From: a virus | Taxonomy: Duplodnaviria > Caudoviricetes | Direction: 5' to 3' (one strand) | Length of the DNA stretch: 36,550 nt | IMG/VR virus record: IMGVR_UViG_3300032290_001420 | Location: 1-36,550 of that record | In this document: piece after piece, positions 3,684 through 31,867 of the stretch | Layout of the letters: every line of letters begins with the position of its first letter | Position numbering within the stretch: position 1 is the stretch's first letter | Notes under the pieces: generated by a model | Seen by the model: the letters and a program-made list of their open reading frames with translations, nothing else | What the model was told of the DNA's origin: nothing | Database searches by the model: none | Translations under genes and position numbers: made by a program

Positions 3684-4253
3684 ATGACTTCAAAAACTGA
3701 ATTATGTAATCTTGCATTGTTAAAGTTAGGTAAGGGTCGTGTTCAAGATATTGACACTGACCCAAGCCAACAAGCTACTGACTTGAAACTTGCTTATGAT
3801 TTTGCATTAAATCAGATTTTGAACGAAGCCGAATGGAGTTTTGCGGTGCGTAGGCAAGCCTTAAATAAGCTTACCGAAACACCGCTTTACGAATGGAGCT
3901 ATAAATTTGCATTACCAACTAATCCCGAATATATTAAACTTATTTCTATTGAAAATGAACCCGATTACACAATAGAAGGAAAATATATATTGACTAATAC
4001 CGATAATATAAAAATTACCTACATTGCTAGAATTACAGACCCTAGTGAATATACATCAGGTTTTAAAAATGCTTTTGTTTTATTGCTTGCTACAAAAATA
4101 TGCTATAATTTAACTGGCTCGGATAGTAGAGAAAAACAATTATTATCCGAATATGAAAATGCTTTGTATCAAGCTATGACACAATTTAAAGCAATAAGAA
4201 ACGAAACACCTTTAACATCTAACGAATGGATTAATATAAGACAAAATGGCTAG
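3684..4253 (+). CDS. Tail tubular protein A / adaptor (T7 gp11-like)
   Basis: ELCNLALLKLG, WSFA and Y.FALP motifs; 189 aa; gene order. Confidence 0.85.
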   Translation: MTSKTELCNLALLKLGKGRVQDIDTDPSQQATDLKLAYDFALNQILNEAEWSFAVRRQALNKLTETPLYEWSYKFALPTNPEYIKLISIENEPDYTIEGKYILTNTDNIKITYIARITDPSEYTSGFKNAFVLLLATKICYNLTGSDSREKQLLSEYENALYQAMTQFKAIRNETPLTSNEWINIRQNG

Positions 4254-18723: not shown

Positions 18724-19096
18724 ATTCTTTTCTTAATTCATTATATTCATTTAATCTTTCCTTAAATTTATCAGAGTTGATAAAATCATTAAGTTCATCG
18801 TAATATTTATCTCTCATTATCCAGTTTCTACCATAATGCCAAGTTCTTTTAAAATATCCCTCATTTTCGTCAAAATAATTTAAAAAAATATAATATTCCC
18901 AAGCGTATTCAGTAGTAATACCGTATTGAGCTTTAATATATTCTTCACCAAATGTTTGAAGCCCAATTGGTCTACCATCTTCTAAATCAATTTCATTGCC
19001 GTAAAAATTAATAAATCTAGCTTTTTTAAGCTTCTGTTTTAATTCTTTTTTAGCTTTGTATTTTTTCCAGAATTGCATAATATTTTTATATAACAT
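18710..19096 (-). CDS. Hypothetical protein
   Basis: Tightly packed ORF in the operon; start uncertain (possibly MQFW). Confidence 0.6.
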   Translation of the reverse strand: MLYKNIMQFWKKYKAKKELKQKLKKARFINFYGNEIDLEDGRPIGLQTFGEEYIKAQYGITTEYAWEYYIFLNYFDENEGYFKRTWHYGRNWIMRDKYYDELNDFINSDKFKERLNEYNELRKEYELL

Positions 19097-19787
19097 TTTT
19101 TAATACTTTTTCAATTTCTTCCATATGTGAAAAATGTGGAGCATGCCCGCAATTTTCGATAATATGCAATTCAAAATCTTTAATTCTTTCGGCAAATAAT
19201 TTTGCTTGCGAGCTTGCAACTACTTCATCGTTTGCACCACTAAAACAAATTGTCTTAGGAAATTTTTTAAAATTAACATCGAAACAAGAAAAATCTCTTA
19301 AATGTAAAAGTTTTTGCTCCAAAGCATAACAGCTTAAAACATTTAAATCTTGAATCTTCATTTTGTCAAAAACAAGATCGGCGTTTTCATCGCCACTTGC
19401 ACTCATCGCAACTAAATTTCGCATTGTAGCTTCAGGATATTTTATGAAACCATTAAAAAAACTATAAAACATTTCTTTCGGCATTCCAAATTTATTTGTT
19501 TCATTTTCGACAAATTGAAATATTGGAGCAATTAAAATTAAAAGCTTTGTTTTTAATAGCTTCTTTTTAATTAAATTAATAGCACAATGCGTGCCAAGGC
19601 TCCAAGCGATAGTAATATCATATTCTTTACAACTTTTATAATTTCTAGGAGTTATTCCATCGCCAAAATTACTACTAATTACATAATCGTAAGTCTCAAA
19701 CTCAGCATCTTTAAAGATGTTTTTAAATTCGTTCTCAAGTGTTTTTGGTTCTTGACCCCAGCCGTTAAGGCAAAGTATTTTTTTCAT
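19086..19787 (-). CDS. bioH: Alpha/beta hydrolase, BioH-like pimeloyl-ACP methyl ester esterase
   Basis: LNGWG, AWSLG nucleophile elbow, GANDEVV (Asp) and GHAPH (His); 233 aa; AAGGAG SD. The fold is secure and the BioH specificity is inferred. Confidence 0.7.
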   Translation of the reverse strand: MKKILCLNGWGQEPKTLENEFKNIFKDAEFETYDYVISSNFGDGITPRNYKSCKEYDITIAWSLGTHCAINLIKKKLLKTKLLILIAPIFQFVENETNKFGMPKEMFYSFFNGFIKYPEATMRNLVAMSASGDENADLVFDKMKIQDLNVLSCYALEQKLLHLRDFSCFDVNFKKFPKTICFSGANDEVVASSQAKLFAERIKDFELHIIENCGHAPHFSHMEEIEKVLKNVI

Positions 19788-23875: not shown

Positions 23876-24031
23876 TTAAAAGTTAATATTAATAATTTTG
23901 CCGTCCGTTTTTTCCGATTTTTCAGAAAAAAGCTTTGGCTCTTTGCTAGTTCCGACAATATCTTTCTCAATTTTAGCTAAAAGTAATCGATTTGATATTT
24001 TTATTATAACATTTTCAGCGGTATCGTTCAT
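23876..24031 (-). CDS. 51-aa hypothetical protein (below cutoff)
   Basis: Hand translation MNDTAENV...KIININF; TAATG-coupled to the HicB-like gene; fills the gap exactly. Confidence 0.55.
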   Translation of the reverse strand: MNDTAENVIIKISNRLLLAKIEKDIVGTSKEPKLFSEKSEKTDGKIININF

Positions 24032-24330
24032 TATTTTATGAATATAGGTTGATATTTAAAAACATTATCAGGATATTCTTTTTTAACCTGCTCCAATGTC
24101 TTAGGCTCAGGCAATTCCTCATCATATTCACGAATAAAGCTCACATGAAACTCTAACGCTTCATGTGCCATTTCTATTGCGTCCTTAAGGTCTTTACCTA
24201 CACTTACGCAACCGTCAAAGTCGGGGAATACTACGCCAAAATTTTTGTCAATTACTGCTATATATTTTTTTATTTCGAGTCTTTTTGTAATGTCTTCTAT
24301 TTTTTTTTCTAAAATTTCTAATTCGTTCAT
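24031..24330 (-). CDS. hicB: HicB-like antitoxin domain protein
   Basis: YIAVI..FGVVFPDFDGCVSVG.DL.DAIEMAHEAL.FH......EELPEP matches the HicB signature. Confidence 0.85.
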   Translation of the reverse strand: MNELEILEKKIEDITKRLEIKKYIAVIDKNFGVVFPDFDGCVSVGKDLKDAIEMAHEALEFHVSFIREYDEELPEPKTLEQVKKEYPDNVFKYQPIFIK

Positions 24331-25923: not shown

Positions 25924-25999
25924 TGGTTGGTAGAGAGGGATTTGAACCCCCGACACGCGGATTATGATCCCGCTGCTCTACCAACTGAGCTACCTACCA
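25924..25999 (-). tRNA. tRNA(CAU), probably elongator Met
   Basis: 76 nt; acceptor TGGTAGG/TCTACCA; D-arm GCTC/GAGC; anticodon arm GCGGG-ATCATAA-TCCGC; TTCAAAT T-loop; encoded CCA. Confidence 0.93.
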
Positions 26000-26000
26000 A

Positions 26001-26076
26001 TGGTATCAGATAATGGATTTGAACCACCGACCCAAACATTATGAGTGTTTTGCTCTAACCGCTGAGCTAATCTGAT
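26001..26076 (-). tRNA. tRNA(CAU), Ile2 (lysidine) or Met
   Basis: 76 nt; acceptor ATCAGAT/ATCTGAT; anticodon arm AAACA-CTCATAA-TGTTT; TTCAAAT T-loop; encoded CCA. Confidence 0.93.
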
Positions 26077-27061: not shown

Positions 27062-27387
27062 GATTTTAAATATTTGTTTTTAGCCATTTTATATAAAAAC
27101 TTTGCCTGCCAGTTCCAAAGATCAAATTTACATTCATCTTTTAAAACTTCATAACTTATAGAATCCTCCCAAACTATTTTACAAAAAATAATTTTACCAA
27201 AAAATTTATCATTAAAATAATAAGAATAAAAAATCTTTAATTCCCCCTTGTCTTTGATTCCGCATTTATTTCTTTTAATCAAAATTAATAACACTATAAA
27301 ATTAAATATTTTTCTCATGTTACTAATGCCCCTACTATTACAATTAAACATGGTAAAATTACAATTACTAATTCCATATATTTTCAT
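27052..27387 (-). CDS. Hypothetical protein
   Basis: Overlap-coupled ORF; start uncertain. Confidence 0.5.
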   Translation of the reverse strand: MKIYGISNCNFTMFNCNSRGISNMRKIFNFIVLLILIKRNKCGIKDKGELKIFYSYYFNDKFFGKIIFCKIVWEDSISYEVLKDECKFDLWNWQAKFLYKMAKNKYLKSWK

Positions 27388-27713
27388 TTTAAGTTAATAA
27401 CATTTACTAATTCTAATTGTGATTTCGGAATTACTTCGTCAATCCACTGATTCTTAATAATACAGCTATCCGCACTTGAGAGAATAATCTTTGCTTGCGA
27501 ATAGCCTTTTAATGCCTCTGCCTTATCAACTCCTCTTATATTTTCTTTTTCAAGAAAATTATCGAGTATAATAAAGCTAAAAATATTATTTTTAAGCTCA
27601 ATAATTGCATCAACAAAATTATCAACGCAAGTTAAATTAACTTTTAATATTTTAGCTTGATGTTTTAACAACATTGTTAAAATTTCGGAATCCTCAATTA
27701 ATAGAATTTTCAA
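27384..27713 (-). CDS. Stand-alone response-regulator receiver (CheY-like) protein
   Basis: KILLIEDS, FIILDN (phospho-Asp), IILSSA (Ser/Thr) and VIPK (Lys); 109 aa; TTG start. Confidence 0.8.
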   Translation of the reverse strand: MKILLIEDSEILTMLLKHQAKILKVNLTCVDNFVDAIIELKNNIFSFIILDNFLEKENIRGVDKAEALKGYSQAKIILSSADSCIIKNQWIDEVIPKSQLELVNVINLK

Positions 27714-28398: not shown

Positions 28399-28614
28399 TT
28401 ATTTTTTAAAGTTAATAATAAACTCATCTAGGTTAAAAGATGAATTTTGTTTTATAATTTCGTCGATTTTCTTAAAATTACCCGCCGATATTAAAGCTTC
28501 ATATTGCTCAACGCTGTCGAAGTATTTTAAAAAAATATCTCTGTTATGATGGTAAAGTTTCGCTTTACTTGCATTTTCAATAGTATTTGCAAGTATGTGT
28601 TTAATATGAATCAT
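28399..28614 (-). CDS. Hypothetical protein
   Basis: Start moved to ATG 28614 (MIHIKH), with a GGGAGG SD at the end of the DnaB gene. Confidence 0.6.
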   Translation of the reverse strand: MIHIKHILANTIENASKAKLYHHNRDIFLKYFDSVEQYEALISAGNFKKIDEIIKQNSSFNLDEFIINFKK

Positions 28615-29908
28615 TTGCCTCCCAGAATTTGCTTTGTTTGCCGTTAAAGTTAAATAAAATGTCCCCGCATTCACCCTCACGATTCTTAGAAACAATTATA
28701 TCTGCTTTGCCTTTTACATTATTATAGCATTTAAGCCAATCTTCATAATGCTTTGAGTGTTCGGGAACTTTTTCTCGCTCTAAGAAATATTCCTCTCTAT
28801 GCGTAAACATAACTATGTCCGCATTTTGTTCTATAGCTCCTGAGTCCCTTAAGTCGCTTAGGATTGGTCTTTTATTTTCTCTCGAATCTCCAGCTCTTGA
28901 TAATTGCGACAAGGCGACAACAACAATATTGAAGTCTTTTGCTATTTTCTTTAAACCTTCGGCAATTCTTGATATTTGTTGCTCTCTTGAAAATTCCTTA
29001 CCCGAACTTGCGATTAATTGTAAATAGTCAATGCAAATCATTTTAATATCATTCTTAAGCATTGCCCGTTTAATCTTGCTTCTAATTGTTAAAAGATTAA
29101 TGCCATTTTCTTGATCGAGAATCAAATTATAATCTTTCCAAGTGTGCCTATTATTTTCTATTGATAGCTTGTCCGCTTCGGTTGTTGCTCCGATTTTTAA
29201 TCTATAAGCACTTGCTCCAGTTGTTTCATTTAGAAACTTTCTTGCCAAGCTTTTGTCCGATACTTCCATTGAAAAAAATAAAACTCCATAGCTTAAAGAA
29301 ACATTTTTAGCAAAGTTTAAACAAAATGTAGTTTTTCCGCTCGATGGTCTGCCACCGATAATAACTAAATTACCAAGCTCAAAGCCTCCAGTTAGAATAT
29401 CTAATTTATCAAAGCCCGTAAAGATTAATTCTTTTTGATGATTAGATAAAACATCATCAATAACTTTGTCAATCTTTTTAGGCTGATTAGACATGTTTAT
29501 TGATATGTCGGCTATGTCTCCCTCTAATTTTGTTTTAATAGCATCAAAATCGCTTGTTTTATCGCTTATAATTAAATTTAATATCTTTTTTAGCTCTCTT
29601 ATTTGCCATAACCTAATTACTTCATTTGAATAAGATTCCATATCAACCAATCCACTAGTAGCATTGGATAGGTTTTTAATAATCTTAACATCAATTCCAT
29701 TGTTTTTAACAAATGTTGAAATAATCCTAAAGTCAACAACTTCACCAGCTCCAATTCTTTTAATGACTTCTTCAAAAATCTTTTGATAATCATCGAAGTA
29801 AAAATGTTTAGCTTCAAGATTTGGTGATTTTAACAAATACATGTTATTTGAAAGAATAGTTCCCAGTAGGGCTTCTTCTATCTCTTGATTAAAATTTTCT
29901 TGTTCCAT
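28601..29908 (-). CDS. dnaB: Replicative DNA helicase
   Basis: GGRPSSGKT Walker A, FSMEV, IDYLQL, ALSQLSR, LRDSGAIEQNAD and KNREG motifs. Confidence 0.96.
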   Translation of the reverse strand: MEQENFNQEIEEALLGTILSNNMYLLKSPNLEAKHFYFDDYQKIFEEVIKRIGAGEVVDFRIISTFVKNNGIDVKIIKNLSNATSGLVDMESYSNEVIRLWQIRELKKILNLIISDKTSDFDAIKTKLEGDIADISINMSNQPKKIDKVIDDVLSNHQKELIFTGFDKLDILTGGFELGNLVIIGGRPSSGKTTFCLNFAKNVSLSYGVLFFSMEVSDKSLARKFLNETTGASAYRLKIGATTEADKLSIENNRHTWKDYNLILDQENGINLLTIRSKIKRAMLKNDIKMICIDYLQLIASSGKEFSREQQISRIAEGLKKIAKDFNIVVVALSQLSRAGDSRENKRPILSDLRDSGAIEQNADIVMFTHREEYFLEREKVPEHSKHYEDWLKCYNNVKGKADIIVSKNREGECGDILFNFNGKQSKFWEANDSY

Positions 29909-29909
29909 G

Positions 29910-30539
29910 CTATTTATCTAATAAATGTTGATATTGACTTAAGAATTTAGGCTCTTCATTTGTTTTAGAGTTGCTGTTAAAGTTATTCCCTTCCCAAGTT
30001 CTAATACACGCTTTCCAATCTTTCATTGCATTTTTACCAACTTTCCAACCATTAGCTTCGTAGTAATTGAAAAATTTATTTACATCAACATTGTTTTTTC
30101 TTTCTAAGCAATAATCTTTAATTTCTTGAATAGTTGGTTTTATGAATTTTTTAGTTTTATCAGAATTATTCTTAATCTCACTTTTATTCTCATTCTTATT
30201 TTCACTCTCACTCTCACTCTTACTATCATTATCTGCTACTTTTGCTACCTTTTGGTAGCTTTTGCTAGCATTTGCTACCTTTTGCTTACCACCTAACGAA
30301 CCAGCTTCACGCCTAGCTTCACAGGTTTTTTTGTATATTTCCTCGTCTCTTTGAAATTGATTTATGAAAGGAGTTATTGCCATCTTTAAGCCAAAATCTA
30401 ATTCTGGTAAACAACCTTTTTCTTGGTAAAATTTAATTGATTTTATAAAAATTCCTGCTTGCTCATTGGACATTTCATCGAGAATAACTAAGCTGTCTTT
30501 GTGAACAATAAAACTTTTACGATTGTTTTGATTTGTCAT
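29910..30539 (-). CDS. Replication initiator (DUF6291-like N-terminus, lambda O analogue)
   Basis: KSFI...EQAG, REAG.LGG, FIKPT.QEI..YC and [21 protein letters not shown] motifs; adjacent to DnaB; carries internal repeats. Confidence 0.8.
30231..30290. repeat. Six 10-bp tandem iteron-like repeats (probable origin)
   Basis: atctgctact, tttgctacct, tttggtagct, tttgctagca, tttgctacct, tttgcttacc. Confidence 0.75.
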
Positions 30540-30796: not shown

Positions 30797-31261
30797 TTAT
30801 TGTAAATTGTGATTAATATGTTTATACCAACTATTTTCTAGCTTTACAAGTTCGATTGGATATAAATACTTTTTTAATTCTTGATAAAGTAATTTTAAAG
30901 AATTAAGTATGGCAATATTTTCGATTTTTTTATTGCTTAATGAGTCGTTTTCAAAAATTGTAATATCATCATAATTTTTACCCGAAACAACTTTGTAAGC
31001 AAAATCAAAGTCCTCAAAAGTGTTTTTAAGCCCGTCTTTTTCTTCATGACATAAAGGCAAGTTCCACCGAAATTCTCTTAGCTTTAGATAATAACCAGTA
31101 TGAGGAAAATTGTACTCATATATTCCAATTCTGGGCTTATTTTGCTCTACTTGTAATTTAAACCAAGTTATCATGTGCCTAAAAGTAGTTCCACCAAAAG
31201 TTTTATAAAATAAATCATATTGCTGTTGACTTTCTATAAATGCTTTTTCCTTTTCGTTCAT
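30797..31261 (-). CDS. Hypothetical protein, first gene of the replication operon
   Basis: Start moved to ATG 31261 (MNEKEK), with a GGAG SD 6 nt upstream. Confidence 0.65.
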   Translation of the reverse strand: MNEKEKAFIESQQQYDLFYKTFGGTTFRHMITWFKLQVEQNKPRIGIYEYNFPHTGYYLKLREFRWNLPLCHEEKDGLKNTFEDFDFAYKVVSGKNYDDITIFENDSLSNKKIENIAILNSLKLLYQELKKYLYPIELVKLENSWYKHINHNLQ

Positions 31262-31675
31262 ATTACGCTCCACGCTTTGATTTTGGCGAGGTCAAGCGTG
31301 GATTCTTGACCCCATAAAAAAATATAAACCTGATCCACCAGATTTAAAGAAGGAAAGCTACTAACTTTATTACCGCTGTATCTCATCAAGCAGTTTTGCT
31401 GTTCGCTTTCCAGCGATGAAGTCAGGCAACCGCATTTTTTAAAAAAAACGTTGACTCCATCACAAGTAAGCGAAGAGGGGATATGAAACCCCCCTTTGCC
31501 AAAATATTAACTTTGTTAAATAAATTCTTTCTTAATTTGTTGGTAGAGGGCAGATTTTTCCGCTTTCTAACAAATAGTTATTATTAATATTATAAATCAT
31601 ATTATCAATGGTTTTTAACCAGTGATAATCTTGGCTTGCACTGGAAATGCAAGCTTCAAATAGAATTTAACAAAA
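31262..31675 (-). ncRNA. ~410-nt structured leader / cis-regulatory RNA
   Basis: No ORF of 60 aa or more; about eight helices in two closed domains; G-U pairs mostly favour the - strand; kissing-loop and anti-SD complementarity. Confidence 0.65.
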
Positions 31676-31678
31676 AAC

Positions 31679-31707
31679 ATACTAAAATTTTAAAATCTAT
31701 AAGTCAA
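31679..31707 (-). promoter_or_regulatory. Sigma70-like promoter for the leader and replication operon
   Basis: TTGACT-17 nt-TAGTAT; the predicted start coincides with the first helix of the leader. Confidence 0.65.
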
Positions 31708-31867
31708 TATCTTTTTGATTTTCAATAATTGCCGAAATTGCATCTACTATGATATTTATCAATAAGCAAATACAAATAATAATAAAAATCCCAAATAAAA
31801 TATAGTTCGTATAAGCTAGAGCCGTGCCGAATAATAATAAAATAAGTGTTAAATAAAGTTTTTCCAT
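31697..31867 (-). CDS. 56-aa membrane protein (below cutoff)
   Basis: Hand translation MEKLYLTLILLLFGTALAY...QKDIDL; two hydrophobic segments. Confidence 0.55.
   Translation of the reverse strand: MEKLYLTLILLLFGTALAYTNYILFGIFIIICICLLINIIVDAISAIIENQKDIDL

Follow-up and report, generated by a model that had tools for sequence, protein, structure and literature searches.

The window, by which we mean the whole stretch of DNA analysed, comprises 36,550 bases of a virus record that is 91% complete and has 30% G+C. Podovirus-type head and tail genes lie on its + strand, and a long - strand arm carries genes for DnaB, RecE/RecT, NinB, a methyltransferase and two tRNAs. The runs that contain the region are mostly freshwater or plankton metagenomes. 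Three genes of the - strand arm, downstream of a 441-nt leader, concern us here:

30797..31261, - strand: first ORF after the leader, 154 aa, no family, in a hypervariable slot
29910..30539, - strand: putative replication initiator with a DUF6291 N-terminus
28601..29908, - strand: DnaB-like replicative helicase (phrog_19, E 1.3e-88)

The initiator owes its putative label to its place ahead of DnaB. The slot of the first ORF is filled by 11 protein families among 43 leaders (two of 45 leaders are too short to score); these ORFs vary in length, and the target sequence described below precedes the ORF. It had been proposed that the operon leads to the initiator, and this holds: wherever 2.4 kb or more of sequence follows the leader (20 of 20), the initiator gene begins 0.4-2.3 kb 3' of it, and in the distant locus L008 it begins directly after it. 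A promoter-like 10/12 match at 30791-30764 could serve the initiator separately, bypassing the switch in this genome. Despite this possible bypass, L008 shows, as far as its sequence goes, a geometry of direct control over the initiator.

Among relatives (G001, G002 and G004; L454-L460), the early/replication arm and its leader occur next to three different head-tail modules, and the initiator and DnaB types are swapped as well. A scan with the element pattern over one genome per species found no prophage and no host, its three matches being read as chance. At window positions 19086-19787 there is a BioH-like alpha/beta hydrolase gene, possibly a phage-borne biotin-pathway gene. Many of its 143 homologues (E up to 0.001) are named pimeloyl-ACP methyl ester carboxylesterase and several are on 30-54 kb contigs; they carry no organism names and hence give no clue to the host. 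Two tandem CAU-anticodon tRNA genes (25927-26076) lie 2 nt apart, each with an encoded CCA, and as a dimeric precursor the pair would also need RNase P. Many - strand ORFs between 17700 and 35200 have a TAACTTAA-type A/T motif ahead of them in place of a Shine-Dalgarno sequence. Further, a HicB-like gene without a visible HicA partner and a lone response-regulator receiver domain occur at 24031-24330 and 27384-27713.

The upstream part of the leader, with the ORF that overlaps its promoter, contains the following features:

31697..31867, - strand: 56-aa hydrophobic ORF; the -35 box of the leader promoter falls in its last codons
31679..31707, - strand: predicted sigma70-type promoter TTGACT-17-TAGTAT, from a 9/12 match and conserved geometry
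31512..31675, - strand: optional 5' hairpin cassette outside the conserved switch (fold and comparison)
31474..31495, - strand: G/C-rich first hairpin, sequence swapped between lineages, position kept
31402..31473, - strand: long hairpin with a variable stem and a conserved GGUUG(C) at 31431-31426, just 5' of the 3' arm (comparison)
31372..31394, - strand: hairpin with both stem arms swapped between lineages around a GAURAGA-type loop (comparison)

The leader is predicted to fold at -123.3 kcal/mol (z = -5.98), a stability reached by none of 100 shuffles. A promoter at its start was part of the preliminary description. The match alone is at chance level, with 47 promoter-like sites in the window against 46.3 expected, but its geometry is conserved: of 29 distinct homologous sites, all picked by their TTGAC, 27 have TAnnnT at a spacing of 16-17 nt. 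The -35 box sits in the conserved last codons of an upstream ORF that is otherwise divergent; among 13 homologues at 30-88% identity, D55 is invariant and I54 nearly so.

The two closed domains that had been drawn in the leader proved not to belong to the conserved element. From the 5' domain (31512-31675) only the last 70 nt recur, in two other contigs among the fetched loci, and the contigs of relatives skip the domain. Of 27 leaders that share the upstream type of the window, only 10 have the TTTTGGC arm described as closing the 3' domain, and compensating changes are never seen in it. The 5' cassette (about 31512-31677) is also seen with another downstream neighbour, in contigs of two RNA runs and one DNA run, and may be a separate mobile RNA module. 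The assembled contigs of the two RNA runs are short pieces that all lie outside H2. The GGUUG(C) bulge and the GAURAGA loop are carried on fully swapped stems, and GGTTGC also occurs upstream in L008; one may speculate that they are a protein site or an antitermination element.

The core of the element lies at the 3' end of the leader:

31325..31346, - strand: H1, an 8-bp hairpin (alignment A2); its loop GUGGAU (31338-31333) is an upstream copy of the target
31314..31324, - strand: linker rich in U with AU at its 3' end, predicted 5' leader for RNase P
31314/31313, - strand: predicted RNase P cut between these two positions
31288..31313, - strand: H2, a 9-bp hairpin with G1-C as first pair (alignment A2); antisense loop at 31304-31297
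31284..31287, - strand: GCCA, a tRNA-like discriminator plus CCA and predicted 3' end of a 30-nt RNA (31313-31284)
31268..31277, - strand: target, overlapping the GGAG ribosome-binding site, defined by pairing with loop 2

All coordinates of the preliminary description are correct on the - strand: H1 at 31345-31326 with loop GUGGAU, H2 at 31313-31288 with loop AAUCCACG, the 9-nt complement 31302-31294 / 31277-31269, GGAG at 31271-31268, the ATG at 31261 and the arms TTTTGGC / GCCAAAA. Both hairpins are present in the minimum free energy and in the centroid structure of the leader. Loop 2 can pair either with loop 1 (the kiss) or with the target, whose CGUGGA (31274-31269) would supply stem 2 in an H-type pseudoknot. 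When the last 110 nt were shuffled 5000 times with dinucleotides preserved, a three-way core of at least 5 nt appeared 47 times, a 9-nt pairing 7 times and both together never.

Pattern-based and protein-based scans matched 137 loci, many of them on the same contig, which left 34 distinct intact cores. Sixteen loci were not parsed, 13 of them from three contigs with a deletion form and three cut by contig ends. As a check on pattern bias, loci were fetched through the upstream 99-aa protein alone. This gave 26 loci, of which 23 reach the end of the leader; 20 of these are intact (12 of the GUGGA class and 8 of the GUGCG class) and three have the deletion form.

Three-way covariation of loop, loop and target had been set beforehand as the test of the switch, and it is present. 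In all 34 distinct cores, and additionally in L008, a 5-nt core is identical in loop 1 and the target and complementary in loop 2. This concordance represents perhaps three to four independent changes, since the classes are inherited as an 85-nt block and the rows are related. Three compensated classes of putative specificity are found, GUGGA, GUGCG and GUGCA; for the first two, predicted pairing inside a class exceeds pairing across them by 3-7 kcal/mol. The 9-nt pairing with the target that had been described exists in the window, but what is conserved is 6-7 nt and not the full nine.

The stems were studied in alignment A2, which holds 30 of the first 32 cores (L227 and L003, with long or odd linkers, were left out). 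All eight pairs of H1 and all nine of H2 are 100% paired in the 30 rows. Double changes occur at six of the nine H2 pairs and three of the eight H1 pairs; the four lower pairs of H1 are invariant and thus carry no information on covariation. H2 has six stem haplotypes, plus that of L008. Between loop 1 and loop 2 a U-A pair is swapped for G-C (12 vs 18 rows). Between loop 2 and the target there are G-C/C-G and U-A/C-G swaps; this is an undercount, since MAFFT misaligns the target of class C as well as the GUGCG kiss, and the same misregister makes four rows appear unpaired at two positions in the kiss. None of 500 shuffles reaches the covariation score. The GUGCG class has regained its match to the target in two ways, one being a register shift that keeps GGAG and the other losing it. 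We consider it very likely that the alternative pairing is functional.

The exchanges also bear on the idea that the hairpins act as DNA, as origin hairpins or as a recombination cassette, and not as regulatory RNA. The leader is indeed a mosaic and adjoins a slot in which genes are swapped. However, both stems show G-U pairs of the transcribed strand exchanged for A-U and G-C, the position of the target is tied to start codons and the ends of H2 are tRNA-like, which makes an element of this kind hardly credible.

The deletion form, present in three contigs (L006:1095-1172, L007 and L234:4385-4462), retains H1 and loop 2 with an altered 3' arm of H2. The CCA and the target are gone, and the remainder is fused to a short ORF ahead of the initiator. 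Two different loop types are represented. It looks like a natural constitutive variant. That these three contigs persist despite the loss of CCA and target counts against the model presented below.

Additional antisense sequences occur further upstream in two loci. The first leader hairpin of L082 (about 2760-2800) and of L004 (about 3740-3775) bears an extra AUCCACG, a second GUGGA-class antisense copy; in L004 it mismatches the phage's own loop class.

L008, a distant phage locus, was fetched through the initiator protein and then matched by the core model just ahead of the initiator. The match is weak (E 0.27, or E 0.02 in a smaller search). In our reading, loop 1 is GUGCAG, loop 2 is CUGCAC and the target GUGCAG ends 1 nt before the initiator AUG, which adds the third loop class. 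The L008 loop pairs with GUGCG-class targets at -8.8 to -9.2 and with its own target at -9.9, so that these two classes may not be orthogonal. Stems and spacer (loop 3) differ from those of the main family, yet AU/G and C-ACCA are kept (the slash marks the predicted cut). In about 2.5 Mb of fetched loci, a general scan for loop-loop-target arrangements matched 11 places outside the family, and of these only L008 has RCCA; a version of the scan without bulges missed L008. With a second model, run on 50 whole records from more distant phages that carry an initiator, L008 was the only match (1/50). These records represent 50 of the 70 loci L008-L077, all of which were searched as loci with the first core model. 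A match at L482:902-976 was judged to be chance.

The ends of H2, a feature missed in the preliminary description, read AU/G...C-GCCA in all 34 cores and likewise in all 20 intact loci fetched by protein only. This scope matters for the count in cores, because GCCA was fixed in some of the search patterns. The layout AU/G...C-RCCA is that of the acceptor end of a tRNA precursor. Among the 13 strong hairpins of the window, H2 alone has the full end motif. The same scan recovers P4 CI but misses P1 C4; further matches at window 13106-12997 and at two places in relatives were judged to be chance. A point against the model given below is that pseudoknot-free folding leaves RCCA largely paired in three of nine full leaders, the window included (unpaired 0.10-0.23). 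E. coli RNase P cuts hairpin-like substrates that have no T loop, CI and C4 among them, according to PMC5499578 and a list in PMC11143913. For short hairpins, PMC12710915 describes good cleavage with U-1 and G73 and anchoring of the substrate by RCCA; among its pMini3bp hairpins, the G73 variant with U-1 has the highest rate quoted. These model minihelices resemble H2 in being short hairpins with U-1, G+1, G73 and a 3' CCA. They are synthetic, whereas H2 would be a natural RNase P minihelix with an antisense loop. The RNase P site is probably real, judged from these sequence features, and the conserved ends suggest host RNase P as the trigger, with the hairpin as the likely factor acting in trans.

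The ends can also be explained without RNase P. A purely cis-acting switch, kinetic or triggered by a protein, would consist of competition between kiss and pseudoknot, and RCCA would be kept for contacts in loop 3 of the pseudoknot or as a protein site. The geometry suits an H-type pseudoknot in cis, other conserved upstream loops could bind protein, and in the main family the stretch 3' of H2 is nearly invariant beyond GCCA, so that L008 alone separates RCCA from its neighbours. However, L008 changes loop 3 wholly and keeps RCCA and AU/G. Further, the first pair of H2 is always G-C, whereas six of the nine pairs show double changes, and P4 CI bears the same flanks. We regard such a switch as unlikely.

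The preliminary description had named P4 CI, P1 C4 and IncI plasmids as analogues. The two phage systems fit, by order, ends and classes, and IncI does not. Complementary copies lie 5' and just 3' of the antisense hairpin on one predicted transcript in all 34 cores and in L008, the same order of upstream copy, antisense RNA and downstream copy as in P4 CI. In P4, GCGUGAGAA occurs upstream and again just after CCA, and the downstream target follows 5 nt on. CI has the flanks AU/G and C-GCCA, as H2 does; its UUCUCAC bulge is situated just 5' of the 3' arm, as are the antisense bases of H2. A GUG/CAC core is common to both, and both stand ahead of an operon with replication genes. The upstream copy in P4 acts as a cis decoy, and from its likeness to P4 seqA and P1 a1 the H1 loop would be a decoy or a target. 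The differences are in size and context. P4 CI has a 16-17 bp stem, two inner hairpins and two recognition sequences, while the RNA from H2 would measure about 30 nt and has a single stem of 9-10 bp with a single loop; unlike P4, there is no kil/icd-like first gene here and no integrase was found. PMC4825925 describes CI as a product of leader processing that base-pairs with seqA and seqC and shuts off the replication genes by termination.

P1/P7 C4 is likewise an antisense RNA between two targets with a ribosome-binding site as target. In the P1 record a1/b1 are upstream, then follow c4, a2 at 3 nt downstream and b2 before icd, an upstream/downstream order as here. According to PMC5320573, RNase P cuts C4 to about 77 nt and the RNA occludes ribosome-binding sites; four nucleotides set the specificity of P1 versus P7 C4, a few compensated bases thus giving types that do not cross-react. 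C4 is listed as a motif in PMC2864571. The processing that is established for C4 is, for H2, predicted from its ends, where a U/G start, a paired first base and a CCA-like 3' end are present as sequence motif. C4 measures about 77 nt with three stems and ends in ACCU, against a 25-26 nt hairpin with one loop that ends in RCCA for H2. Further, C4 controls icd-ant, an antirepressor for a protein repressor, and not an initiator operon as here.

The element therefore appears to resemble P4 CI and P1 C4 in order, ends and compensated classes without being a member of the Rfam C4 family, as it fails the covariance model and the three-stem fold. Rfam C4 (RF01695) has no match in the window, either at the gathering threshold or at E up to 10, and none at E up to 1 in the loci of five relatives; the P4 control scores 74.9 bits. 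A fold of three stems, about 77 nt long and with two recognition sequences, is absent here. Across Rfam, only two tRNAs are found in the window, with chance-level matches in the leader. BLAST against 50,697 phage records gave short A/T-rich matches only, and in a 9-stem pattern scan chance matches swamp those listed. A literature search, with most subscription papers beyond its reach, returned no description of this element.

The Rfam results also weigh on a ligand-sensing riboswitch. SAM-II and preQ1 are riboswitch classes of the H-type pseudoknot kind, and here too a pseudoknot would cover the ribosome-binding site; the conserved upstream loops, moreover, have no explanation. Such a switch is nevertheless very doubtful: Rfam gives no match in window, leader or five relatives' loci, the three classes differ in their core by Watson-Crick swaps and share no invariant pocket apart from GUG/CAC, and the downstream genes are not metabolic.

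For the control of IncI/IncB repZ, a loop-mediated long-range pairing sets translation of the initiator, as we propose here by inference. PMC8053102 describes the control of IncI repZ, and as in IncI, loop-loop pairing would free the start region of the initiator. The plasmid pseudoknot, however, is activating, depends on a leader peptide and is prevented by a counter-transcript, and there is no support for any of these features here. A promoter of at least 10/12 on the opposite strand within 170 nt was found by a promoter scan in one of 44 leaders against 2.9 expected, and that 170-nt stretch is the hypervariable ORF, with no conserved leader peptide. An IncI-type mechanism, with a counter-transcribed antisense RNA blocking an activating pseudoknot, is thus highly improbable.

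We moderately favour a miniature switch of the P4 CI / P1 C4 type for the replication operon that host RNase P would process. In each new round of transcription, H1 and H2 would be made before the target, so the kiss would form first and leave the start region open; with the kiss in place a ribosome could load as the start region emerges (ON). A cut by RNase P between H1 and H2 would remove the decoy. The freed loop 2 would then pair with the target, forming an H-type pseudoknot (stem 1 of 9-10 bp, stem 2 of 6-7 bp, loop 3 of 11-14 nt) that hides the start region (OFF). Since the pairing of loop 2 with the target is equal to or stronger than that with loop 1 in six of six representatives, OFF would be the resting state. 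From geometry, a cis H-type pseudoknot would fit here and not in CI or C4, which have a long stem and a very short spacer.

Trimmed back to CCA, the hairpin would become a 30-nt RNA that could act in trans, pairing with loop 1 or with the target on transcripts made later; we are evenly divided on whether it does so. Accumulated mini-RNA would also let loop 2 close the pseudoknot over the start region. Shut-off would in this way grow with time and copy number and be specific for each loop class, and downstream genes would follow by translational coupling or polarity.

Action in trans only, as in P4, would make loop 1 a second target, and the processed RNA would mainly cause premature termination, at H1 and a U tract or through Rho. 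A U-rich tract does lie 3' of H1. The H1-H2 linker spans 7-49 nt among the 34 cores, and the 7-nt minimum leaves little room for a 6-bp kiss in cis unless H1 frays at its base. Termination through pairing with seqA and seqC is what PMC4825925 describes for CI. H1, however, is weak (about -4 to -6 kcal/mol) and not called as a terminator, a 49-nt insert follows it in one relative, and the target is always a few nt from the AUG of 11 unrelated ORF families. We find this variant rather improbable.

Genes typical of temperate phages were sought as a clue to what the switch would be for. No tyrosine integrase was found in five relatives, nor any integrase among the 55 window proteins; S24 repressor, resolvase, ParA and HTH_3 were not found in five genomes that are at least 90% complete, one of them with terminal repeats. 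Small proteins that by eye resemble helix-turn-helix proteins exist, and a divergent repressor may be among them. As none of these markers was found, a role in lysogen-type immunity is without support, and the purpose may instead be timing or copy control.

Tentatively, we suggest that in these phages without recognisable integrase or repressor RNase P could be a clock. Its cut would flip the kiss into the start-codon pseudoknot and free a 30-nt RNA that would keep count of genome copies and shut out co-infecting phages with the same loop class. If true, replication and exclusion would be under RNA-only control, by an element less than half the size of C4 and portable across three unrelated head-tail modules.

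Antisense control by an RNase P-processed RNA has been described in a few enterobacterial phages, where the RNA measures 77 nt and has two loops. If the reading is true, the form in this abundant uncultured family of freshwater phages, with 30 nt and a single loop, would be a minimal version of this logic, and it would add a natural minihelix to the substrates of RNase P. The whole switch takes 85 nt, comes in natural sequence classes and could serve as a set of small translational switches. Further, if true, such control possibly exists in phages that are not classic lysogens.
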